20,233 nucleotides of DNA from Thermoproteota archaeon (GCA_027492035.1 JAOZFT010000005.1:1-20233); one strand, 5' to 3'; shown: positions 2,079 through 16,543, numbered from the stretch's first letter. The notes: generated by a model from the sequence alone, not told the origin. Made by a program: numbers and translations.

Positions 2079-3407
2079 TTACTTTACCTTCATTACATGA
2101 TACGCCTTAAACATCATTGGAAGGAAGTCACCCGGCCCTACTTCATAAACATCAACCCCTAAACTCTTCAATTTTGAAATGTTCCTTTTTCTTCTCTCCC
2201 TTTCTTCTTCTATTACATGTAAAGTTGACACGACGCAGAAATTATCCACGTCAGGAAAAACTTGGCCTGGTTTTTTAAAAAGGTAAGTGGAGGGTGACAC
2301 CACAACCGGGTTGTAACCCATTGAAACAGCTTTCTTTAAAGCTTCATAAACCTTTTTTTCAGCGAAATCTTCTAAGTCGGAAATTAATAAAACCTTTGCA
2401 GGGGTTTTAATTTTTTTACCCAGAAACTCAATAGCTTTCAAGAAATCAGGTTTACCGAAGCATTGAAGCAAAAAGGAAGTCTTCAAAATCGCGTAGAAAT
2501 GATTTAGAGTTGAACCAGGTTTAATATATGTTGATGTTTCCCTTGGCAAAAGAACACCGGAAACCGTAGGTATAATTATTCCTATTAAGTCACCGTTCCG
2601 AATGGCCTGACTCGCCAGAAACAAAACAGCCTTTTTCAAATAGTTTAGCTTTTCTCCAGCCATACTTTCACCTGTATCAATTATAATTACTAGCACTCTC
2701 CCAGTTCTCGCCTCGAATTCTTTTATGATAGGTTTGCCTAACCTTGCAGTCGCTTTCCAGTCAATGAACCTCAAGTCATCCCCAGGCTGGAACTCCCTAC
2801 TTGAGTAATAATCTGTACTTAAACCCTTCGATTTCAATGTGTAAGGCCCAATCCAAAAGTAACGTTTTTCTCTTTCTCCAACAAATACTTTTTTCAATTC
2901 AGAAACCCTTGGAAGCACAGTCACAAAACTAAAATTCTTTATTTCCCTCGAAAATCTAAAAAAACCAAGTTTATCTTGGAAAGAGAAATAAATAGGACCT
3001 ATAGTGAATGTCCCCTCCCTTCTCCCTTTCAAAACATATTCAGCCTTCACTTCACCTAAATCATTAGTTTCAACCTTAACTGGCAGTTTACCTTCCACAA
3101 GTGTTAAGGAATCACTTGGGAATTCATCGTTCAAAAAAAACTTTTTTAATAATTTATTTTTGCAATTAGACACTTCCAGTTTTACTGTCAGGAAGCCCCC
3201 CTCCACAATAAATCTCTCACTTAAAACCCTTTCAACTTTAATATTGCTTGAAAACATTATTTGTTCCAAAGAGAAAAGTAAGGAGAGAAAAGAAATAAAG
3301 AGAGGAACCGTAGACACAAGTATTAATAGAGGAAGCTGAAAAACAGCACCTAAAACCATTAATGAGAAACTGCCTACGTAAACAGAAATTACCCTTTTAG
3401 TGAACAA
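2079..3407 (-). CDS. DUF58 / vWA-domain membrane protein (MoxR partner)
   Basis: N-terminal TM pair, Ig-like segment, hallmark REFQPGDDLRFIDWKATAR, MIDAS-like IIIDTGESM and LISDLED. Start placed at TTG 3407 after GAGGTG, just past the MoxR stop (ORF track gives 3422). Confidence 0.92.
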   Translation of the reverse strand: MFTKRVISVYVGSFSLMVLGAVFQLPLLILVSTVPLFISFLSLLFSLEQIMFSSNIKVERVLSERFIVEGGFLTVKLEVSNCKNKLLKKFFLNDEFPSDSLTLVEGKLPVKVETNDLGEVKAEYVLKGRREGTFTIGPIYFSFQDKLGFFRFSREIKNFSFVTVLPRVSELKKVFVGEREKRYFWIGPYTLKSKGLSTDYYSSREFQPGDDLRFIDWKATARLGKPIIKEFEARTGRVLVIIIDTGESMAGEKLNYLKKAVLFLASQAIRNGDLIGIIIPTVSGVLLPRETSTYIKPGSTLNHFYAILKTSFLLQCFGKPDFLKAIEFLGKKIKTPAKVLLISDLEDFAEKKVYEALKKAVSMGYNPVVVSPSTYLFKKPGQVFPDVDNFCVVSTLHVIEEERERRKRNISKLKSLGVDVYEVGPGDFLPMMFKAYHVMKVK

Positions 3408-3408
3408 G

Positions 3409-4881
3409 TTAAGGCACCTCAACTTCCCTTAAAACAGAGGAAATGATACTTTCAACAGTTACCCCTTCAAGTTCAGCTTCTGGTTTAAGCATGATCCTAT
3501 GTCTCAAAACAGGATTTGCAAGATACTTTACGTCGTCAGGTACCACGTAACTTCTACCGTTAAGCAGAGCTCTGCATTTACTCCCTTTAACAAAGGAAAT
3601 AGATGCTCTTGGACTTGGGCCGAGAAGCACTAATTCATGCCTCCTTGTTTCATGCACAATATCACTTATGTAATTAATCACTTTGTCATCAACAAAAATG
3701 TTTTCTTTCACCGTGTCCTGAAGAATTTTTAGAATTCTAGGTGACCCGATTGAATACATGTTTTTTATTGCTTCAAATCCCTTACCCTTCATTATATCTC
3801 TCTCCTCTTTTTTAGAGGGGTAATTAACTTTTATTTTAAACATAAACCTATCTATTTGGGCTTCAGGTAAATTATAAACGCCTTCCATTTCTAACGGGTT
3901 CTGAGTTGCAACCACAAAGAAAGGGTTTGGGAGAGGGAAAGTTTTTCCTTCAACAGTCACTTGTTTCTCTTGCATGGCTTCAAGTAAGGCGGATTGAGTG
4001 TTGTGAGTCAAGACGCCTCCATTCCATCCACAAACATAGCTTTCAGCACCATCCTCCATTGATAAATCAAAAAGCGCTTTCAGCTTCCCTTCCCCCTTAA
4101 CTTTAATTTTCTCGACATGCACTAGGTTTAAAGGGTGATTTTTGCTTTTTAAGGGCTGCATTACTGCTGAAACAATGTCTCCAACCCTTAAAGAGAATGC
4201 TTCTTTCCATTTAAACCTTCCCAGTTCATAAACGTGAAAAAAGTGACGAGGTGAACATTTAACCACTTGACCTGCACTCAGTTCAACTTCATAAACAGGT
4301 TTAAGGGTTAACTGCCTATAAAGATACTTAATTTTCCTTTTCACAACAAAGCCTCTTTGGTTAAGGGAATAGCTTTTAAGGTTTCTGCACACTTTAACAA
4401 ACTCTCCAGCCCCTACTCTTTTTTCAGTTGCTTTACAATTTTCATAAATTTTCCTTATTTCAACCTGCCCAGTGGATAAGTGTATAGGTGTTTCACCATC
4501 TAAACATTTAGGTGGGGCTCTGTTTATTTCATCCGCCAATATTATGTTAGAAAAAATAGGTCCCTGCATGAATTTGAATTCACCTTCCTTACTTGAATAA
4601 ATAAATGACCCTATTATGTCTGAAGGAAGCATGTCGCTTGTGAACTGAATCCTTTTGAAGCTACAGCCTAAAACTTTACTGAACCCTCTAGCTATAAGTG
4701 TTTTACCTAGACCAGGAACTCCTTCCAGTAATATGTGCCCCTCAGCTAAAATAGCTATCAATATTTTTTCAAGAAGCTCCCTCTTACCTACAACAACTTT
4801 TTTAAGTTCAAACAAAATTTCCTCTTTCAATTTCGGCGCTAAATCAAAAACAAATTTTTCTTTGGTTTTGTAATCTGCCAT
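3409..4881 (-). CDS. moxR: MoxR-family AAA+ ATPase, intein-containing (490-aa precursor, 321 aa after splicing)
   Basis: GHILLEGVPGLGKT (Walker A), RIQFTSDMLPSDIIG, ILADEINRAPPK | TQSALLEAMQE, ATQNPLEMEGVYNLPEAQIDRF, GPSPRAS, VLRHRI. A 169-aa insertion splits the conserved PPK-TQS motif. Confidence 0.97.
   Translation of the reverse strand: MADYKTKEKFVFDLAPKLKEEILFELKKVVVGKRELLEKILIAILAEGHILLEGVPGLGKTLIARGFSKVLGCSFKRIQFTSDMLPSDIIGSFIYSSKEGEFKFMQGPIFSNIILADEINRAPPKCLDGETPIHLSTGQVEIRKIYENCKATEKRVGAGEFVKVCRNLKSYSLNQRGFVVKRKIKYLYRQLTLKPVYEVELSAGQVVKCSPRHFFHVYELGRFKWKEAFSLRVGDIVSAVMQPLKSKNHPLNLVHVEKIKVKGEGKLKALFDLSMEDGAESYVCGWNGGVLTHNTQSALLEAMQEKQVTVEGKTFPLPNPFFVVATQNPLEMEGVYNLPEAQIDRFMFKIKVNYPSKKEERDIMKGKGFEAIKNMYSIGSPRILKILQDTVKENIFVDDKVINYISDIVHETRRHELVLLGPSPRASISFVKGSKCRALLNGRSYVVPDDVKYLANPVLRHRIMLKPEAELEGVTVESIISSVLREVEVP
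4000..4506 (-). mobile_element. Mini-intein (169 aa, no homing endonuclease) in MoxR
   Basis: Begins CLDGETPI (block A; Cys1 = TGT 4506-4504). Block B VKCSPRHFF, WKEAFSLRVGDIV, block F LFDLSME, ends GGVLTHN (His-Asn; AAC 4002-4000) followed by Thr+1. Removal restores DEINRAPPKTQSALLEAM exactly. Confidence 0.96.
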
Positions 4882-4883
4882 TT

Positions 4884-6203
4884 TTAAGCCCCTATCTTTT
4901 CTAAAACCTCCATTAAACTGTCACACATATTTATGAAATCTTTAAAGCCCACAACCTTCTTACTCCCCTTCTTAACCATTAAACATGACTCTAACAGTTT
5001 TTTTAATTCCTCACTTTTAACGCTTGGATACTTTTCCACAATCTCTTCATAAATTAATTTAGGAACAGAAATTTTTGGGTTAACTCCTACCCTTTCAAGA
5101 AACCACTCAAAAAAGGATGTTAAATACTTGTTGTAATCATTTTCAGAAGATTTAAATTCCGAAACTAATTCAGAACCCTTCCCTTCTCCACCTCCTCCTT
5201 TCACGCTTAAAAAGTTTAGTGGAGATTTTGAAAGATGGGAACCTACTGATTTAACAGTTAAGAGAATAAGAAATGAAAAAAAAACAATTGAAAAAAGAAA
5301 TGAAACTGAAAACCTGAAAATTAAAGGTTGTTGCGACCATTCAATCAGAAAAGTTAGGAAATAAATTGAAAGAGGCTTAAACAACCAAACCTTGGATTCA
5401 CAAACGTAAACAGTTACTTCCTTTTCAGGAGCTAAGTAGTTTAACATGTAATTAGCTGCTGCTAAGTTACTTCCTTTAAATAACATATCGTTAATGAAAA
5501 TATCGGGGTCGCTTACAATCACTGCTTTCCCTTCACCGTAAGACGTAAAAACTACTACTGGAAAGGGACCCCGGGGTTCATCTTCATCTCTTTCTAGGTT
5601 ATAGTTTACATCAAGCCAACTTGACCCTGAACTCTCAGCTTGAATTGACAAATTAACTTTTAACCACGTCCCATTTAACTTCACATAATATTTCCCGTTT
5701 TTAAGTTTGCCTTCAAAAACAAGTGCACTTGGGTGATTCAAAACCAAAGTGAAAACCTTTTTAAACCCTTTTTTAACTGTTAGGTTCACCAATGGAAAAA
5801 CAGGTTGTTTAGAGTAAAGAGAAGGTTCAAGAAGTAAATTTCTCCTAAACTCAACCCCAAAAACCCTTGAAAGGGAGTTCCCTTCCCTGAAATCATCAGC
5901 TAAAAGTAAACCGCCTCCATTATAAACAAATTCTTGAACAGCATCAACTTCCAAGTCACTTAATTTTTCAGCTGGACTTAAAAAAATTAATAATTTACCG
6001 TGTGGATTCGTTAAGTTAAGGGTTAAGGGAGAGTAGATAGTTTCTAACCTCCACCCCTTACCTTTAATGAATTCAGCAAAATCTGAACAACCGTCCCATT
6101 TCTTATTGAAAACTGAAAAAGCTGGTAAAGGATTGTAAAATAACAGGACTAGGAAAGAGAAAAAAAGGAGATAGAGTGCAGTATAAGAAAAAAGTTTGTT
6201 CAA
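4884..6203 (-). CDS. DUF4350-like (GATase-like fold) membrane-anchored protein
   Basis: N-terminal TM, FSVFNKKWDGCSDF, FVYNGGGLLLADDF, YGEGKAVIVSDPDIFINDML...N, second TM region and a cytoplasmic tail. Ends 2 bp before moxR, the usual position for this family. Confidence 0.85.
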   Translation of the reverse strand: MNKLFSYTALYLLFFSFLVLLFYNPLPAFSVFNKKWDGCSDFAEFIKGKGWRLETIYSPLTLNLTNPHGKLLIFLSPAEKLSDLEVDAVQEFVYNGGGLLLADDFREGNSLSRVFGVEFRRNLLLEPSLYSKQPVFPLVNLTVKKGFKKVFTLVLNHPSALVFEGKLKNGKYYVKLNGTWLKVNLSIQAESSGSSWLDVNYNLERDEDEPRGPFPVVVFTSYGEGKAVIVSDPDIFINDMLFKGSNLAAANYMLNYLAPEKEVTVYVCESKVWLFKPLSIYFLTFLIEWSQQPLIFRFSVSFLFSIVFFSFLILLTVKSVGSHLSKSPLNFLSVKGGGGEGKGSELVSEFKSSENDYNKYLTSFFEWFLERVGVNPKISVPKLIYEEIVEKYPSVKSEELKKLLESCLMVKKGSKKVVGFKDFINMCDSLMEVLEKIGA

Positions 6204-6215
6204 ATCCTTAACACC

Positions 6216-8039
6216 TTATCCTAAACTTTTAAATTCCATTCCCTTTTCATTCCCCCTTCCCAACTTGTTTATGAAAAAGTCAATAATCAATGAAAAAACA
6301 AATATTGTTTTTAGATATTCAGCTGAAGTGATTTCTTCCCTTCCATACTTCGCCTTCTCTACAACTCTTGTGAAAAACTGAATATCGCTTTCATTCTTTT
6401 TATACTTATTAAAAACTTTTAGGAAAAATTCCCTAACTGTTTCTCCACGCTTCTTTTCCACCCCGTTTAATTTTGAAGCCATTTCAACTAAAAGGTCTCC
6501 AAGGAAGAGAACTCCTTCCCTGAAATTACTTGAATCATAAAAAGCAGCTACTCTTTCGACAATTTTCTCAAGGTCACTAATCAGTTTATCTTCCTCTTTT
6601 TCTTTACTTTCCACAGCTCCACCAACATTAAGTTTTTCTTCCTCTTCTTCCCTTTTTCTGCGTAAAGAGAAAGACACAGCTAAAACTGCAATTAAAACAG
6701 CTGAAAATGGAAATACTAAGAAGTATATGTTTCCTGCCAAACTTTGAATACTTGAAGTAAACCTTGTTTTGTTTTGAAATACGCTTGCGTTTACGCTAAC
6801 ATTAAATTTGTTAAATTTAATTTTTTCAGGATTAGTTTTGTTCAGAGACGCATTCTCATTACCAACTAATCTGTTCTCTTTCTCAGCTGACAAGTTAACA
6901 GCTGACAAGTTAACATTTGAAGCTGTTTTGTTACTAATCACAGATTTCCAACTTTTCTTTATTTGTTTTTTATGTACTACTTTAATTTTGTTCAGGGGTA
7001 AAACATCAATTGTTTCCAATTTAGATGGTGAAGGATCGACTGGGCACCAACCGACTCCTGGGAAGAAAACCTCTGCCCAACAATACTCATCGCCACTATG
7101 AACCCAGTATCCGTTGCCTGAAATATTAACCGGTTTAAAGCCAACAACCAGCCTGGCAGGTATGCCTATTTCCCTTGAAAGAAGCGTAAAAACTGTTGAG
7201 AAAAGAAAACTGTCACCTTTACCTTTCTTGAAGAAAAGAGAAATTGCTTCGTAAGTGGAAACGTTCCCAAAATCCACTTCAGAAACATACTTAAAACCTT
7301 TAAGGAAATCAATTAAAACCTTAACCTGTCCAGCCATGGTTAAGCTGCTGTTTTTAACTTTCTCAGCCGCCTCAACTAATTCAGGAGGTAACTTTGAAGG
7401 AAGAGAAGTAAACCTAGATTTCACTTCACTAGGTACATCTGAAACATCAGCTAAGGAAATTTTTGAGAGGTTATAGATTCTTTCTTGATAAGAAATGTTA
7501 TAGAGGAGGTAAGTTCCTGAAACATTTCCAGAAACCAAGACAGAACCAGTGTCTGTTAAGTAACTTTTCACTTCCACATTTGACACAGTTAACCCTTTAA
7601 CCGTTTCAATCATTGAAGGAACAGGAAGGATTCCTACGTACTTCCGTAAGCTTCCTTTATTAATTATAACTGTGAAAGAAGTAAGACTTGAAACATTAAC
7701 CTTGAGAGGGTATTCTTTACATTTATAACTGAACTGAGCCCATCCTTTACCGTCGAAAAAATCAAAAGAATCAACACGCCAAAGAACTTCTTTACTTAGG
7801 CCTGAAACATAAAACAGAGGCAAATTAGGTTTTATTTTCGATAAAGGGGTAAGTGGAAAGTAACCCCATTTAAAAGATAAGTTCCCAGTCACCCAAGAGA
7901 TTAAAAGTTCTTTACCCGGTGGAAGAGAAATTGCAGGGGCTAATTCATAATTTATGTGTTGAGGAGGCTGACCATAAGCAACTGACCATGTAGGGAAGAC
8001 AAAAAAAAGCATTAAAACTAAAATAAATTTTTTATCCAT
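6216..8039 (-). CDS. Secreted, membrane-anchored transglutaminase-like protein (catalytic Cys/His substituted) with C-terminal DUF4129-like domain
   Basis: Signal peptide; LWRVDSFDFFDGKGW (TgpA N-domain motif); core GKGDSFLFS...LSREIGIPARLVVGF...YCWAEVFFPGVGWCPVDPS; TM followed by RRKR; tail GETVREF...FTRVVEKAKYG typical of DUF4129. Confidence 0.88.
   Translation of the reverse strand: MDKKFILVLMLFFVFPTWSVAYGQPPQHINYELAPAISLPPGKELLISWVTGNLSFKWGYFPLTPLSKIKPNLPLFYVSGLSKEVLWRVDSFDFFDGKGWAQFSYKCKEYPLKVNVSSLTSFTVIINKGSLRKYVGILPVPSMIETVKGLTVSNVEVKSYLTDTGSVLVSGNVSGTYLLYNISYQERIYNLSKISLADVSDVPSEVKSRFTSLPSKLPPELVEAAEKVKNSSLTMAGQVKVLIDFLKGFKYVSEVDFGNVSTYEAISLFFKKGKGDSFLFSTVFTLLSREIGIPARLVVGFKPVNISGNGYWVHSGDEYCWAEVFFPGVGWCPVDPSPSKLETIDVLPLNKIKVVHKKQIKKSWKSVISNKTASNVNLSAVNLSAEKENRLVGNENASLNKTNPEKIKFNKFNVSVNASVFQNKTRFTSSIQSLAGNIYFLVFPFSAVLIAVLAVSFSLRRKREEEEEKLNVGGAVESKEKEEDKLISDLEKIVERVAAFYDSSNFREGVLFLGDLLVEMASKLNGVEKKRGETVREFFLKVFNKYKKNESDIQFFTRVVEKAKYGREEITSAEYLKTIFVFSLIIDFFINKLGRGNEKGMEFKSLG
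6884..6915. repeat. 15-bp tandem duplication (CAGCTGACAAGTTAA x2) encoding VNLSA-VNLSA
   Basis: Exact period-15 repeat read directly in the sequence; in frame, and duplicates an N-L-S sequon. Confidence 0.9.
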
Positions 8040-8046
8040 TTAATTC

Positions 8047-8820
8047 TCACCTTAAGAATCTGTAAACAGTTTCCACATATTCACCCTCAGGTGAAACAAT
8101 CGTTGACTCTATAAACACAGAGTCACCTGTTGATTCACAAAGTACACAAGCAACTAAACTACAGAATGGACACCCTATTTGTTCACATAAACCAGGATAT
8201 TTTCCTTTAATGCTTCTGCAAAGTTTTCCTGTAAGTAAACCTGTAAACCTGACTTTCACCCTATCCTCTTCAAAAACATAATCCAGAGTTTTCAAAACTT
8301 CAAGTTTATTTAAGCCTTCTGAAACCTTATTAATGGCTTCATGAACCTCTAACTTTTTAAATTTTACATTCAAAAACTTTTCAATTAATTTTTCCAGGGT
8401 ATAACCAGGAGGATCTAAAACAAACCCGCTTGGTGCATAAATTCTCAAACTCCTCTTATCAATGACGCCTTCTAGAGGGACATAGGTTTCTGCTTCACTT
8501 AAAGGAACAAAAACTTTTATTAAGGACTCAGACCCTTTAAGAGAAAGATAAACCCCTCTTCCCTTGCATCCTTCAACCAAAAAAAGTGTTCGGTAATAAT
8601 TAAAGGAGTTTTCAATGAAGGGGTGAAGCAAATCTGCTTTAATGAAACCTCGGTAGCCAATGAGGTAAACAATTGCTCCGTAAAAAATGCATCCCGCACC
8701 TATTAACCCTAAAATTAAAGATTCATATCGAAAAGAAAAAAACAGAAAAATGAAACCAAGAGAGAAGAGGATTAAGACAGGTAACCGGGAAATTTTCCTC
8801 ACATACAAAACATTCTCCAT
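8047..8820 (-). CDS. Two-TM membrane protein with C-terminal Cys cluster (V4R-like, tentative)
   Basis: N-terminal hydrophobic pair; C-terminal LCRS...LCEQIGCPFCSLVACVLCESTG. ATG 8820 preceded by GGAG (ORF track starts at TTG 8826). Confidence 0.75.
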   Translation of the reverse strand: MENVLYVRKISRLPVLILFSLGFIFLFFSFRYESLILGLIGAGCIFYGAIVYLIGYRGFIKADLLHPFIENSFNYYRTLFLVEGCKGRGVYLSLKGSESLIKVFVPLSEAETYVPLEGVIDKRSLRIYAPSGFVLDPPGYTLEKLIEKFLNVKFKKLEVHEAINKVSEGLNKLEVLKTLDYVFEEDRVKVRFTGLLTGKLCRSIKGKYPGLCEQIGCPFCSLVACVLCESTGDSVFIESTIVSPEGEYVETVYRFLR

Positions 8821-8835
8821 CTTCAACTCCTCTTC

Positions 8836-9490: not shown

Positions 9491-10939
9491 TTATTTCATA
9501 AAACCAATTTCCCCCTGTTTCTTAAGTTCATTAAGAACCAATAAATAACTGTTTAATGTACCTAACGAAACAGTAAGAGAAAGGACTGCACCTTCAATCC
9601 ATGGAGTAATTGAAAAAGTTAAAGCATGTGAAAAAACAAGTAAGTTTCGGAAAAAGAAAAAAGTTATGAATGTCCCAAGTAAACACCCTCCAAATCCACT
9701 TAGAAGAGAAACAATAACCAGTTCAGACAAGAGCTTCTTTAAAACATATTTTTTTGACGCCCCAAGAGCCCTTAAAACATGTATTGTTTGTACAATGTTT
9801 TTTATAAGGGAAGACGAAGCCTGATTAACTGTTAACATTGAAAAAAGGAAAGTTAAAGAAGCCAAAAGCCAAAGAAAAGCATCCGTAAATCCGATTTTCT
9901 CTTCAAGAAACCCTTTAATATCCCCACTTTTAAGAGTCACGGAAGAAACTTGCCACTTAACCCCTCGAAAAACAGAACTGTATGCTTTAATCTCTTCTGG
10001 TTTCCCTGCACTAGGTTCTATCCTCTTCTTTGGAGGTTTACCTGTTAAATTAGAAGGCAAAATAAACGTTAACTCTTCATTCCTTGACACATTAAACTTG
10101 AAAGGTTCAGTTGTGGTTCTATTATGTAAAACAACATATAAAGAGTAAGTTCCAATAGGTAGCTTAAAAGAAGTTTTTCCTTCTGCACCTGTCACTTTTT
10201 TGGAGTAGAAATTACCTAGAGGATCAAATATTAAAACAGTAGCACCTTGAACAAGTGAAGAATTGTTTTTCATTCTTAAAGAAACTTTAACACTATAGGT
10301 TTCAGTAACTTCCCGAAGAAGAAACTCCTTATTAATAACCTTTTCTTCAATCTTAACCCTTAACAAAGAAACAAAACCGTAATTAGTGCCTCTAAGCCAC
10401 TGCCCAATGTTTAAAGGAACCAATATTTCGTCCTTGAAGGGAGAACGTGAACTAAAAAATCCTTTAATTTTCAACTCAACAAATTTATCATTTAAACCAC
10501 TAAACACAAGCAGTTCCTCCCCGGTTCTAACCCTTAATCTTTCAGCTAAATCTAAGCCTAAAACAGCTGAAAAAACATCACTTTGGTTTAGTTTAACTCC
10601 CTTAACTGTAACTACTCTGTAGAAAATTTTAGGGTTTACACCTCTAACTATTACAGGTTCCCCTTTCACGTAACAAAGAGCAACTGCTTCAGGGCTTACT
10701 TCCTTAACTCCCTTAACCATTTTTAAGACATGTGTAAAATAAAGTGGGATAAGGCTTGTGGCAGAGGATACAGCCCCTTTTTCACGGAGAACAAAAACAC
10801 CTCTTTCTTCCTGATTAGATATGTCAAAGGAGTAAACATTATTGAAAAGAGTAACTGTGATTAAAAAGAAGGAAGAAGCTAACGAAAGAGTTAGGATGTA
10901 GATGAAACATTCTTTAAAGGTTAAAATTTTCATTTTCAA
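9491..10939 (-). CDS. ABC transporter permease, FtsX/MacB/LolC-E family, with inserted beta-sandwich domain
   Basis: N-terminal TM, extracellular MacB-PCD-like motifs (VRGVNP, AVLGLDLAERL, EILVPL), C-terminal IHVLRALGAS followed by TMs. Start overlaps the stop of the upstream permease. Confidence 0.88.
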   Translation of the reverse strand: MKMKILTFKECFIYILTLSLASSFFLITVTLFNNVYSFDISNQEERGVFVLREKGAVSSATSLIPLYFTHVLKMVKGVKEVSPEAVALCYVKGEPVIVRGVNPKIFYRVVTVKGVKLNQSDVFSAVLGLDLAERLRVRTGEELLVFSGLNDKFVELKIKGFFSSRSPFKDEILVPLNIGQWLRGTNYGFVSLLRVKIEEKVINKEFLLREVTETYSVKVSLRMKNNSSLVQGATVLIFDPLGNFYSKKVTGAEGKTSFKLPIGTYSLYVVLHNRTTTEPFKFNVSRNEELTFILPSNLTGKPPKKRIEPSAGKPEEIKAYSSVFRGVKWQVSSVTLKSGDIKGFLEEKIGFTDAFLWLLASLTFLFSMLTVNQASSSLIKNIVQTIHVLRALGASKKYVLKKLLSELVIVSLLSGFGGCLLGTFITFFFFRNLLVFSHALTFSITPWIEGAVLSLTVSLGTLNSYLLVLNELKKQGEIGFMK

Positions 10940-12126
10940 AATCTCCCGGGTATATTGGCAACCTCTTTAATTTTCACTTTCAAAGTTTTATAAGTTGAAA
11001 ACAAAGAAGCTGCAGAAGATATTAAGAGAACCGCAATCAAAGACTGAAAAACTTGCCAAGGTTCAATAAAAGGGTTAACCTGCATACCTTTCATGAAATA
11101 AATGATTCTTGAAACTACCTGAGCACCAACTAAACCAATGGATAAACCTAACATGTAACCTGTAACTGAAACAATTAAAACTTTGTAGAATAGTGTTTTA
11201 ATAACTTCTCTCCTCTTCATGCCAAGAACCTTGAAAACTGAAACATCTCTTTCGGTTTCAGCCACTATATTAGATGAAACAGCATAAATTGATATTGAAA
11301 CCATTAAGTAAACAATGTAAATCCAAATTGTTACAACTTCCTCAAATTGTTTAAGAAGCAAAGAAGTAACTAAATTCGTTTTACGTATAGGTTGCGCTTT
11401 TAAGCAAGGATTCCTTCCCTCAATTTCCTTAACAGTTTCTTTTTCAAACCTTGCGTTAGAAAGAGAAACCTCGAAAAAAGAAACTTTTTCCTTAAGGTTA
11501 GGTTTCAAAAACCACAATGTTTTTAGAGGAAGAATTATTTCCCAGTCACAAGGGCCATTAGTGTAAATAATGCCTGCAACAGTTAAGTTAACTACTTCAT
11601 TGTTTAAAAGGAAGCTAAGGTTTTCACCTACTACAACCCCTACTTCTTCACTAAGCAAAGACCCTACGTTACATTTTAATCCATCCTCCACAAGCACCCC
11701 CTTAACTTTTATAGGTTTAAAACTAGCAAAAACATAAGGATCAACACCTTCAACCCTGACTTCCCTCACTCCATTTCTAAATTTAACCTTCAGGTTCGTA
11801 AGTAGTACAGGTAAAACAAACCTTACTTTCGTAACATGTAAATCTTTAACAGCCGAGTAATTAATTAAGCCACTAAATAACTCGTTAACCCCTCTTTTAG
11901 TTACTAAAAGTTCTGGAGTTAAACTGTATGGCTGAAGCATTTCCTGAACTTGTTCCCTGTACCCGTTAAAAGAGGAAACAGTGGAGAAAATTAAAGCCAC
12001 TAATGCAGCGACAGTTAAAATTTCAGCAAATGTTTTTCTAGAGTAAAGAACCCCTTTTAAAGCTAGCAGCAACATACAGAAAACCAGCAGTGTAAAAAAA
12101 TAAACTAAAAATTCATTAAACAGCAA
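10936..12126 (-). CDS. ABC transporter permease, FtsX/MacB/LolC-E family
   Basis: VEGVDP, VGSLLSEEVGVVVGE, VAGII, EIILPL, ERDVSVFKVLGM followed by TMs. True start may be ATG 12075. Confidence 0.9.
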   Translation of the reverse strand: MLFNEFLVYFFTLLVFCMLLLALKGVLYSRKTFAEILTVAALVALIFSTVSSFNGYREQVQEMLQPYSLTPELLVTKRGVNELFSGLINYSAVKDLHVTKVRFVLPVLLTNLKVKFRNGVREVRVEGVDPYVFASFKPIKVKGVLVEDGLKCNVGSLLSEEVGVVVGENLSFLLNNEVVNLTVAGIIYTNGPCDWEIILPLKTLWFLKPNLKEKVSFFEVSLSNARFEKETVKEIEGRNPCLKAQPIRKTNLVTSLLLKQFEEVVTIWIYIVYLMVSISIYAVSSNIVAETERDVSVFKVLGMKRREVIKTLFYKVLIVSVTGYMLGLSIGLVGAQVVSRIIYFMKGMQVNPFIEPWQVFQSLIAVLLISSAASLFSTYKTLKVKIKEVANIPGRF

Positions 12127-12182
12127 AAATATAAATTTTATGCGGAGAACATAGTTCCCTACGCAGCATATGTACCACCTCT

Positions 12183-12204
12183 ATACTTTAAATATTTAAA
12201 GTAT
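12183..12204. promoter_or_regulatory. Perfect 22-bp palindrome ATACTTTAAATATTTAAAGTAT: bidirectional TATA element or operator
   Basis: Self-complementary by inspection; contains TTTAAATA on both strands; lies between the divergent permease and ATPase genes. Confidence 0.65.
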
Positions 12205-12284
12205 TGATTTCCACCACTTACAATTACCAACTGAACCAGTGCGCTAAAAAACTTATGAACCAACGGACAGAGGTGGAAAAGAAA

Positions 12285-12980
12285 ATGAAAAATTGTGAAT
12301 CCAGTAACTCTAGAACTTGCCCTGTGGAACTTGTTAATGTATGGAAAAGTTATGACGGAACATATTTTGTCCTCAAGGGAGTGAATCTAAAAATTAAGGA
12401 AGGAGATTTTATCTCGGTAAAAGGTAAATCAGGAATCGGTAAAACAACTCTCCTTAAACTAATAGGATTAATTGACACCCCCACAAAGGGAAAAGTTTTA
12501 TTCTATGGAAGAAACGTTACAGTGTTAAAAGACGAAGAGTTGTCAGAGTTTAGACTGAAAAAGATAGGTTTCGTTTTTCAATTCTTCAACTTAATCCCTT
12601 CACTAAGTGTCCTAGAAAACATAGAGTTACCCATGGCAATTGCTGGGTTAAAAAAAAGTGAAAGAAGGAAGAAGGCTTTCACTCTCCTAAAGAAATTTAA
12701 ACTTGAAAAACTTGCTTACAGAATGCCTGATGAAATAAGTGGGGGAGAAAAGCAAAGAATAGCTATTATAAGGGCTTTAGTTAATGAACCTCGTGTAATA
12801 GTGGCTGATGAACCAACAGCAAACCTTGACGAAGAAAATACATTTAAAGTACTTACCCTACTTAAAAAAATAAATGCAGAGAGAAGGGTGACAATAATTT
12901 TAGCTACAACAAGTTTCCAAGAAGAAATTCCTTCAAATAGAAACTACACACTTAAAAACGGGAAATTGGTTGAAATTTAA
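12285..12980 (+). CDS. ABC transporter ATP-binding protein, LolD/MacB/SalX family, atypical H-loop
   Basis: GKSGIGKTT, IGFVFQFFNL, ISGGEKQR, VIVADEPTANLD; H-loop reads LATTS. ATG 12285 follows GAGGTGG (ORF track starts at 12204). Confidence 0.93.
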   Translation: MKNCESSNSRTCPVELVNVWKSYDGTYFVLKGVNLKIKEGDFISVKGKSGIGKTTLLKLIGLIDTPTKGKVLFYGRNVTVLKDEELSEFRLKKIGFVFQFFNLIPSLSVLENIELPMAIAGLKKSERRKKAFTLLKKFKLEKLAYRMPDEISGGEKQRIAIIRALVNEPRVIVADEPTANLDEENTFKVLTLLKKINAERRVTIILATTSFQEEIPSNRNYTLKNGKLVEI

Positions 12981-13004: not shown

Positions 13005-14618
13005 ATGAGAAAAACTGAAATATTTTGTCTGTTAATTTTATTCATTTCTGCAGCTTCTTTGAGAATGTATCCCTATATTTTAAGATTCACCCCCTACATG
13101 ACAGATTCATGGCCCATAATCCATTTAGCAGAAGAAATATCCAAGAATACGCCAACTCCTTTTAAAGGAGGCGATTTGTTTGGTGAATACAATATTTACT
13201 GGCCAATGGTGGCAGTGTTAATCGTTGAAACAGCTCATTTAACAAATTTAAAAATAATTGAAACAGCACCCCTTATTATTCCTTTAACAGCAGCCCTTTC
13301 AATATTCATTTTTTATCTTTTAACTTTAAAATTAACTGGAAAAAAAGAAATAGCTTTTGCTTCAACCATGCTTTTCGCAGCTTGCGGCTTCCATTCAATA
13401 CTTACAGCTGGGGCTAAAAAGGAAACACTCGCAAATCCGCTTTACTTCACAATACTCTACCTTTACATTTTTTCAAAAGGTAAAAAGAAAGCCTTCCTAT
13501 ACCTGCTTTGCTTCACAACACTGGTTGCTACCCATCACTTAACCACACTTGTAACAGTTGTGATTCTGTTAAACATAGCCCTTGCCTCAACAATTTCCTC
13601 AATAAAGAAAAGCAGAGAAATAAATAAAGAAAAATTATTTTTAATAATTGCTTCCTTATTTATAACACTTACCTACTACCTGTTTTATGCTTATAAAGGG
13701 TTTAAATATGTTTTTGGTTTCACGGACTTTATTTCAATTTTCAGCTTTCAAGCAATAACATGGATCCCTGTTCTCCGCACGATTTTAACCCCAGATAAAA
13801 TGGGAAACAAAAAAAGTTTAACTCCCTTCATTGTAGCAACTGCCGCTATTTTCCTTCTTACACTTATATCATTTAAACCATTAATACCAGGTGCACCTGT
13901 CATCCCTTTAAAAAACCAAGTAACAATTATACCTTATGAATTGGTTGCCTTAATAGCTGCATACGGATATGTTTATTTGAAGGAAGACAATGCAAAGGAG
14001 AAAGTTACAGTTTGCCTTGTGTGGTTTACATCAATTCTTGGATTGGAAGGCTACGCCTTTTTTAGCAGCCAGTATGGTTTAGTAGTTGCATATAGACTGT
14101 TAAATTTCCTGTATCCGCCACTAGCCGTTTTTGCAGGTGCAGGGGTTGCAGCCTTCCTTAAAAAGAAAAAACCCCTTCAAATGTTCCTTTACTTTGTCCT
14201 CCTCATAGCTTTATCTACAGGTACAGCTTATCAATCGTACACAGTTGTAGTTGAAAAGAATAATTACTTCGGTGGCCAGGGAGTGTACACTCAACAAGAC
14301 CTGAAACTTATTCAATGGATTAAGAAGCAAGATGTTGGGAAGAGAGGAATAGCTTCAGATCAAAAAATAAACTATCTTTTAATGTATATTGGAAGGAAGG
14401 CAGATGTACTTGACGGTTTCCTTTACTTAAAAGAAGTAAAGAAACAACTTAAAAACTCTTTCTTAATTACATATAAAGATATGGAGGAAAGAGGCTACTA
14501 CCTAACTTATTACGGTTTAAAACTCCCAAAAGGGTACATTAAAAAACTAAACAAAAAAGGAGAAATGAACATTATATACGTAAATAACCAAGACAAAATG
14601 TACATGAAATTAAAATAA
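13005..14618 (+). CDS. Polytopic membrane protein, probable GT-C-fold (lipid-linked-sugar) glycosyltransferase-like
   Basis: About 12-13 TM segments; acidic residue in the first external loop (YMTDSW); YNIYWP, KETLA, THHLTT; C-terminal soluble domain (DLKLIQWIK...IASD...NIIYVN). This is the architecture of archaeal PMT/GT-C-like proteins. Confidence 0.65.
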   Translation: MRKTEIFCLLILFISAASLRMYPYILRFTPYMTDSWPIIHLAEEISKNTPTPFKGGDLFGEYNIYWPMVAVLIVETAHLTNLKIIETAPLIIPLTAALSIFIFYLLTLKLTGKKEIAFASTMLFAACGFHSILTAGAKKETLANPLYFTILYLYIFSKGKKKAFLYLLCFTTLVATHHLTTLVTVVILLNIALASTISSIKKSREINKEKLFLIIASLFITLTYYLFYAYKGFKYVFGFTDFISIFSFQAITWIPVLRTILTPDKMGNKKSLTPFIVATAAIFLLTLISFKPLIPGAPVIPLKNQVTIIPYELVALIAAYGYVYLKEDNAKEKVTVCLVWFTSILGLEGYAFFSSQYGLVVAYRLLNFLYPPLAVFAGAGVAAFLKKKKPLQMFLYFVLLIALSTGTAYQSYTVVVEKNNYFGGQGVYTQQDLKLIQWIKKQDVGKRGIASDQKINYLLMYIGRKADVLDGFLYLKEVKKQLKNSFLITYKDMEERGYYLTYYGLKLPKGYIKKLNKKGEMNIIYVNNQDKMYMKLK

Positions 14619-16050: not shown

Positions 16051-16497
16051 TCAATTTCTTCTAATTTTCCATTTCCTTCTAGATTTAAGCCAGAGACTCC
16101 AAAAAAACTTAGGCCCGTAAAAGTAAAATATGAAACCTATAAATAATAAAAGAGCCAAACTTGAAAAAGTAGTTATTAAGTACATTTTTCTTTCACGCTG
16201 GCCCTTTTCAATGATTTCTGGAATAGATAACTCAACCTCTTTTATTAATGAATCAGCTTCCCCTAGAAGTTTAGATTTTTCAGATTCATTTCTTGTTTTT
16301 TCAGCTTTATCAATAAGTTGAAGAGCTTCATTAAGTTTTGAAGCTGCTGCAGTTACATTTCCACCTTCCTTTTCAGCCTTCACCAACAAAACATAAACAT
16401 TTTTAATTTTACTTCTTAAATCAGGTTGCCCATTACATAAACTCACAGATAAAAACAGAAACATGAAAAACAAAACAAAACCAAAGTGAACCCTCAT
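16051..16497 (-). CDS. Secreted helical protein with C-terminal TM, upstream of the DUF1616 gene
   Basis: Signal peptide, AEKEGGNVTAAASKLNEAL helical hairpin, TM and basic Trp-rich tail. ATG 16497 follows GGAGG (ORF track starts at GTG 16503). Confidence 0.8.
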   Translation of the reverse strand: MRVHFGFVLFFMFLFLSVSLCNGQPDLRSKIKNVYVLLVKAEKEGGNVTAAASKLNEALQLIDKAEKTRNESEKSKLLGEADSLIKEVELSIPEIIEKGQRERKMYLITTFSSLALLLFIGFIFYFYGPKFFWSLWLKSRRKWKIRRN

Positions 16498-16543
16498 AAT
16501 CACTCCTCCCCTAAAAAAGCAACTTTAGAAACTTCTCCTCCCA

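Follow-up and report, generated by a model that had tools for sequence, protein, structure and literature searches.

What is a 169-residue insertion doing within the ATPase core of a MoxR protein, and would its host be able to function around it? This question is raised by a 20,233-nucleotide stretch of DNA from an uncultured Thermoproteota archaeon (GCA_027492035.1, JAOZFT010000005.1:1-20233), the whole of which is referred to below as the window. Positions 3409..4881 of its minus strand carry a MoxR-type AAA+ ATPase gene of 490 codons plus stop, recognized from the open reading frame (ORF) list, the translation, and Pfam, and this gene is interrupted at 4000..4506 by a class-1 mini-intein. 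As set out below, the mini-intein is ordinary and well preserved, lies in a host and at a site without description in the literature searched, and belongs to an allele family that has gone unremarked in public sequence data.

A class-1 mini-intein in a MoxR gene

The precursor divides cleanly into three parts, all encoded on the minus strand. The N-extein (residues 1-125; 4507..4881) contains GVPGLGKT (residues 54-61; 4699-4722) and IILADE (residues 113-118; 4528-4545), which we take to be the Walker A and Walker B motifs, and its translation ends in INRAPPK, with residue 125 closing the flank IILADEINRAPPK. The insert (protein residues 126-294) lies between Lys125 and Thr295, reads from CLDGETP to GGVLTHN over its 169 residues, and is bordered by ILADEINRAPPK on one side and TQSALLEAM on the other. 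The C-extein (residues 295-490 plus stop; 3409..3999) resumes with TQSALLEAMQE and supplies the lid domain as well as what remains of the AAA+ core. Within the insert, the translation provides the residues expected of a class-1 intein: Cys1, which is Cys126 of the protein (4504-4506), the block B motif S85-P-R-H88 (4243-4254), the block F Asp147, and the terminal His168-Asn169 that ends block G (4000-4005), followed by Thr295 (3997-3999) as the first C-extein residue and +1 nucleophile. The location, catalytic residues, flanks, and arithmetic given in a preliminary description of this DNA were all correct.

Excision of the insert would leave 490 - 169 = 321 residues, a length within the 299-366 residues of intein-free homologs, which align without a gap across K125|T295, as anticipated by the earlier claim that a normal MoxR remains once the intein is removed. 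The Pfam AAA_3 match (1.5e-58) is broken in two, its first stretch stopping at residue 126, position 78 of the 131 in the profile, and an AAA_lid_2 match (2.6e-21) is also present in the precursor. Columns G57, K60, T61, D117, E118, N120, and R121 are invariant in both of the alignments in which they were followed (A1 and A3). Assignment to the MoxR subfamily is based on the combination of an AAA_3 core, AAA_lid_2, and an adjacent DUF58 partner gene.

The evidence that the insert is a class-1 mini-intein goes far beyond chance. It scores 41.3 bits against the TIGR01445 intein_Nterm profile, for which the cut-off is 24.5, and in a phmmer search of solved structures its best sequence match is the TvoVMA mini-intein (4o1s; 4.9e-6 over residues 2-158), followed by the Pho CDC21-1, Pho RadA, and PolII inteins. 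In the alignment to 4o1s, the Thr and His of block B stand opposite S85 and H88, and the Asp of block F stands opposite D147. Across the 29 intein-bearing rows of alignment A3, which comprise 5 mini-intein rows and 24 endonuclease-bearing rows and include three near-copies of the window's sequence and two near-copies of each other, C1, S85, H88, D147, H168, N169, and T+1 are kept without exception. An AlphaFold2 model of the whole precursor, built from a 49-row alignment, has a mean pLDDT of 82.2 and a pTM of 0.73. In Foldseek comparisons, its exteins match the MoxR structure 2r44 (E 2.4e-29; TM 0.88 on the target) as well as RavA 3nbx, and its insert matches the mini-intein 4o1s (TM 0.84; rmsd 2.3) together with 6rpp, 7oec, 4e2t, 5o9i, and others (E 1e-13 to 1e-9; target TM 0.76-0.84). 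The two extein halves are packed as in native MoxR in this model, which is silent on the activity of the precursor.

At 169 residues, the insert is within the ~130-200 residues typical of mini-inteins. It contains no match to LAGLIDADG or any other nuclease family in Pfam at E≤1, and yet alleles at the same site carry LAGLIDADG, which bears out the earlier inference that an endonuclease was lost. An endonuclease encoded out of frame, as in dnaX, was considered and rejected, as no ORF of at least 80 residues runs across 4000-4506 in another frame. A bacterial-intein-like (BIL) domain was likewise rejected, given the canonical HN|T junction, an insertion site that is conserved in the host, and allelic relatives that carry an endonuclease.

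The residue that follows the insertion point is Thr in all 29 intein-bearing rows of A3, and in the intein-free rows it is Thr in 17 of 20 and Ser in the other 3. Six further intein-free MoxR proteins have Cys at the equivalent position (PPKCQSALLEAMQE; loci L031, L034, L036, L037, L038, and L039), two of them labeled Methanosarcinales, two Nanoarchaeota, one an unclassified archaeon, and one Rhodovulum. The MoxR residue at this position is thus always a potential nucleophile, whether Thr, Ser, or Cys.

Alleles of the same MoxR site

Endonuclease-bearing, mini, and empty alleles of this one MoxR site are all present in public data. With the intein alone as the query, 25 hits were obtained at E≤1e-3 among 1.84 billion cluster representatives. 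Nine of these were retrieved. In four of them (P0123, P0125, P0128, and P0135), all MoxR proteins, an intein directly follows DE[IV]NR[AS][PT]PK, and the remaining five are inteins in other host proteins. P0123 (locus L035), from a metagenome-assembled genome (MAG) labeled Bathyarchaeota, has a 173-residue mini-intein that is 39% identical to that of the window. P0125 is a 920-residue protein with a 538-residue, endonuclease-containing intein, and P0128 and P0135 are also endonuclease-bearing and are cut off at contig ends. A search with the junction region of P0125 returned 24 clusters of 839-1010 residues, all 24 of which contain AAA_3, LAGLIDADG_3, and Intein_splicing; their only two named members are labeled Pacearchaeota and Nanoarchaeota. 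The full-size inteins are 503-556 residues long in the nine complete examples measured, with ~335-390 extra residues and a PF14528 match where the window's intein has no endonuclease. P0125 scores 70.2 bits against the splicing-domain profile PF14890 and 52.2 bits against PF14528, and P0123 scores 52.8 bits against PF14890, both above the PF14890 cut-off. Public annotation of the few named carriers of the allele reads only 'AAA family ATPase' or 'MoxR-like ATPase'.

A scan of one genome per species with a degenerate junction pattern returned nine loci. Six of these are the intein-free genes with Cys after PPK mentioned above, and the three that bear an intein come from the sister genus of the window's genome, the Bathyarchaeota-labeled MAG encoding P0123, and a contig labeled Dojkabacteria with an endonuclease-bearing copy. 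A tighter pattern applied to metagenome contigs returned five loci, two of them true and three chance matches outside MoxR. Both patterns undercount because they require particular codons for Ala/Ser and Pro; even so, the MoxR K|T intein allele is, as judged from these scans, rare. Among the 43 genomes of the window's phylum that were covered, a strong match to the intein was found only in the window's genome and in the sister genus, with two further weak matches that both lie in much longer ORFs.

The copy on the Dojkabacteria-labeled contig (L033) is a DPANN-type, endonuclease-bearing MoxR intein that is followed by TQSALIEGMQE twice, the first 11 residues of the C-extein being tandemly duplicated. 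Its exteins resemble those labeled Nanoarchaeota, so that incorrect binning may account for the bacterial label.

Inheritance and predicted splicing of the intein

The intein is also found in the sister genus (G001), where the N-extein and the first 12 intein residues stand at one contig end (C111; L032), and intein residues ~170-294 (in precursor numbering) and the C-extein stand at another (C123; L005). Its C1, CSPRH, FDLS, and THN|T are intact. Both G001 contigs break inside the MoxR intein, either by chance or perhaps because more than one allele was present in the population sampled. Between the window's genome (G000) and G001, approximate rates for the intein (69% amino acid identity; dN/dS 0.135; dS 1.48), the C-extein (82%; 0.089; 1.22), and the N-extein (87%; 0.068; 1.41) are consistent with the intein and its host gene having diverged together under purifying selection. 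The GC content at third codon positions (GC3) is equal in the intein (0.320) and the exteins (0.321), and the frame has been kept open in four 490-residue cluster sequences from separate contigs. From the sharing with the sister genus at dS ~1.3-1.5 and the equality of GC3, it would follow that the intein is old and vertically inherited, in agreement with its earlier portrayal as an old resident.

Beyond these two genera, the distribution of the allele is patchy. In another family of the same phylum, the site is empty (APPK|SQAAF) at the orthologous DUF4350-MoxR-DUF58 locus (L006). Of 20 intein-free archaeal MoxR proteins, 19 share 55-62% identity with the window's exteins, and the other, P0110, shares 52%. 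Identity between the window's exteins and those of P0123 is only 51%, and the latter are 71% identical to the intein-free P0110. The mini-inteins of the window and P0123 group together in the intein tree (100/99), albeit on long branches.

The simplest history to be read from these comparisons has three steps. A homing intein would have invaded the conserved site DEINR[AS]PPK|TQSA, which is occupied in distantly related archaeal MoxR genes; its LAGLIDADG homing endonuclease would then have been lost in this lineage while being retained in the allele elsewhere; and the remaining splicing domain would have been handed down vertically from the common ancestor with the sister genus onward, if not for longer. 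This history is better supported than the chemistry, for which the class-1 residue set provides a plausible course. Cys1 would undergo an N-S acyl shift, Thr+1, acting as the second nucleophile, would take over the N-extein on its side chain, cyclization of Asn169, aided by His168, would free the intein, and an O-N shift would produce the Lys125-Thr295 peptide bond. The unspliced precursor may be inactive. MoxR has a single match at E≤1e-20 in the window's genome, which is 93% complete, and the intein may have stayed intact for the reason that the single copy found would be lost with any failure to splice. Taken together, the element is a canonical 169-residue mini-intein and probably the fixed remnant of a selfish element, which is predicted to excise itself, likely constitutively, and thereby to yield a normal 321-residue MoxR.

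Alternative explanations

The persistence of the intein could also be explained by its domestication as a conditional switch, with splicing tied to redox state, temperature, or substrate and the single detected MoxR thereby gated after translation. One point for such a role is the pattern of retention. The window's genome carries four other inteins (C9:65247-65738, C9:168114-168449, C21:100666-101142, and C19:29757-30053; L016-L018 and L020), found in an SMC-like protein at its P-loop (GPNGSGK|C), a Hel308-like helicase, a HerA-like ATPase, and NrdD, the last being larger. The SMC, Hel308, and HerA orthologs in G001 have empty sites, so that of the four mini-inteins of G000 only the one in MoxR was found to be common to both genera. 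The intein dN/dS of 0.135 points in the same direction, as does a pair of additional cysteines, C84 (adjoining S85 of block B; C84-S85 at 4252-4257, minus strand) and C159 (within block G; 4030-4032, minus strand), which occur in 5/5 mini-intein rows of A3 and in 0/24 endonuclease-bearing rows, where Thr, Val, or Ala replaces C84 and Ala or Gly replaces C159 (24/24); G001 has both as well. Conditional splicing is moreover reported for other inteins, with single-stranded DNA for that of RadA (PMC5238726) and under oxidative stress for that of DnaB (PMC6195587). Against this, nothing direct favors a switch. Purifying selection is no argument for one, as it is expected of any intein in a needed gene, and a mini-intein can persist without conferring a benefit because its removal occurs only by rare precise deletion or conversion. 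The allele is also plainly of selfish origin, given that relatives at the same site carry an endonuclease, and the two cysteines could be no more than the signature of a single clade, the five rows representing two related lineages and near-copies. We therefore regard a conditional switch as unlikely, and its more specific form, in which the intein now serves as a redox- or heat-sensitive device that holds MoxR as an inactive precursor while C84 and C159 trap or release Cys1, as a little more doubtful still.

Two further scenarios were considered. If the intein were dead, MoxR would be left interrupted and probably inactive, or the precursor would undergo only N- or C-terminal cleavage. A PF14890 score slightly under the cut-off and the use of Thr at +1, a weaker nucleophile than Cys, might be taken to favor this. 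It is nonetheless highly improbable, as the set of catalytic residues is complete in the window, in G001, and in the 29 allelic rows, the frame is open in all four of the 490-residue sequences, and both exteins are under strong purifying selection (dN/dS 0.07-0.09), which would be unexpected for a dead product. Alternatively, each genus could have acquired its intein recently and independently by homing and then lost the endonuclease. The allele is mobile elsewhere, and the intein repertoires of G000 and G001 differ, G001 having four other TIGR01445 hits of its own. Between the two genera, however, the dS of the intein (1.3-1.5) equals that of the exteins (1.2-1.4), and their inteins are 69% identical to each other compared with 27-34% to other alleles over the first 125 residues. 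The GC3 of the intein agrees fully with that of its host gene, and two parallel deletions of the endonuclease would be required. This scenario is accordingly very unlikely.

Several observations weigh against the reading of the element as a fixed, vertically inherited, and constitutively splicing mini-intein. The profile evidence that the preliminary description had asked for is divided, as TIGR01445 recognizes the insert well above its cut-off while PF14890 Intein_splicing narrowly misses the window's intein alone, at 34.2 bits compared with a cut-off of 35.8. The G001 intein is seen only as two contig-end pieces with ~32 codons missing, the dN/dS values are rough because dS is near saturation, and long branches underlie the pairing of the two mini-inteins in the tree. 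The retention of the MoxR intein in both genera, when those of SMC, Hel308, and HerA are absent from the G001 orthologs, is also readable as special. Even with these points taken into account, an ordinary mini-intein inherited with its host gene is the explanation that we favor.

Genomic neighborhood

The MoxR gene is part of a minus-strand cluster in the order transglutaminase-like gene, DUF4350 gene, MoxR, and DUF58 gene. The transglutaminase-like protein (6216..8039; Pfam Transglut_core 3.4e-17) is encoded by the first recognizable gene of the cluster, the DUF4350 protein (4884..6203; DUF4350 6.6e-18) directly upstream of MoxR, and the DUF58 protein (2079..3422; DUF58 1.7e-17), the usual partner of MoxR, by a gene that overlaps the MoxR end by 14 bases. 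A role of this system as a cell-envelope chaperone may be read from these neighboring genes only.

A 259-residue ORF on the minus strand (8047-8826) lies directly upstream of the transglutaminase gene and is one of five ORFs of 150-537 residues with no Pfam family at E≤1e-3, the others being 13005-14618 and 3-1067 on the plus strand and 1439-2059 and 16051-16503 on the minus strand. Beside the cluster, 9491-12980 holds an ordinary ABC export system, in which a plus-strand ABC ATPase gene and two minus-strand genes for FtsX/MacB-type permeases are arranged divergently.

Implications

With these results, MoxR, an AAA+ ATPase of the chaperone type that belongs to neither replication nor repair, joins the list of intein hosts, and it shows at least two insertion sites here, one behind Walker B and another behind the ATQNP strand. 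The natural series of alleles at one site, namely empty, full-size with endonuclease, and two mini-inteins, should help in studies of the homing cycle and of how mini-inteins persist, and a small, presumably thermostable mini-intein that uses Thr+1 could be of interest to protein engineers. The current understanding of intein function is not changed by these findings.

Comparison with known intein systems

No paper describing a MoxR intein was found among those listed by the searches, although InBase was not covered by this search and may hold an entry. None of the papers that mention both MoxR and intein places an intein in MoxR; 'MoxR' is absent from the text and supplementary file 2 of Novikova 2015 (file 1 being outside the search), and the accessible part of Soucy 2014 names no ATPase or chaperone as an intein host. 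The proposal that MoxR is an unlisted host therefore stands as far as the literature searched goes, but the allele itself is not unique to this genome, as it occurs in at least 24 further clusters and one other mini-intein lineage. MoxR also has a second site. The idea that a position behind Walker B is unusual, by comparison, did not hold. Sites directly behind Walker B are already on record for DnaX and MCM, and MCM intein sites e and d are placed 'around the Walker B motif' by Novikova et al., so that this class of position was already known for AAA+ hosts.

The second MoxR site, NPIE[LM]EG|S...GI[NS]HN|T[YF]xLPEAQ, lies after the ATQNP strand and is occupied in P0082 and P0087, labeled Odinarchaeota or Asgardarchaeia, and in P0204, P0272, and P0286, which are very acidic proteins. 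These inteins differ from that of the window in having Ser rather than Cys as the first residue and in being larger, with LAGLIDADG_3 confirmed in P0204. Among the 120 matches listed of the 640 from a search for long MoxR proteins, six carry PF14890, five at the second site and one at the K|T site. The occupancy of a second site marks MoxR as a repeated target of inteins.

Other AAA+ hosts provide further parallels. The cyanobacterial DnaX (PolIII gamma/tau) intein is, by its published description, likewise found behind Walker B, and mini and full-size alleles are reported to coexist in dnaX (bioRxiv 10.64898/2026.09.14.751524), but its host is a bacterial clamp loader rather than MoxR. Archaeal MCM (CDC21) is, like MoxR, an AAA+ host with a pre-sensor-1 hairpin. 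The solved structures that best match the window's intein in sequence and fold include those of the Pho and Pab CDC21-1 inteins; the MCM inteins nonetheless belong to another host family, and that of CDC21-1 sits in the P-loop.

The nearest counterparts by site are the inteins labeled Pacearchaeota and Nanoarchaeota (P0125, P0147, P0157, and others), which occupy the same point, DEINR[AS]PPK|C...SHN|TQSA, have all of the catalytic residues, and possess splicing blocks homologous to those of the window's intein at 27-33% identity over the first 125 residues. They differ in their length of 503-556 residues with LAGLIDADG_3, as opposed to 169 residues without it, and in their host exteins, which are 47-52% identical to those of the window. 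The mini-intein of P0123 shares the site, the lack of an endonuclease, and both C84 and C159 and is the partner of the window's intein in the tree, whereas its host MoxR is closer to intein-free MoxR proteins (71% to P0110) than to that of the window (51%). Among inteins of solved structure, the TvoVMA mini-intein (4o1s) is approximately the same size, at 170 residues, and is the best sequence match and a top fold match; its host is the A subunit of a V-type ATPase, and its identity to the MoxR intein is only 23%.

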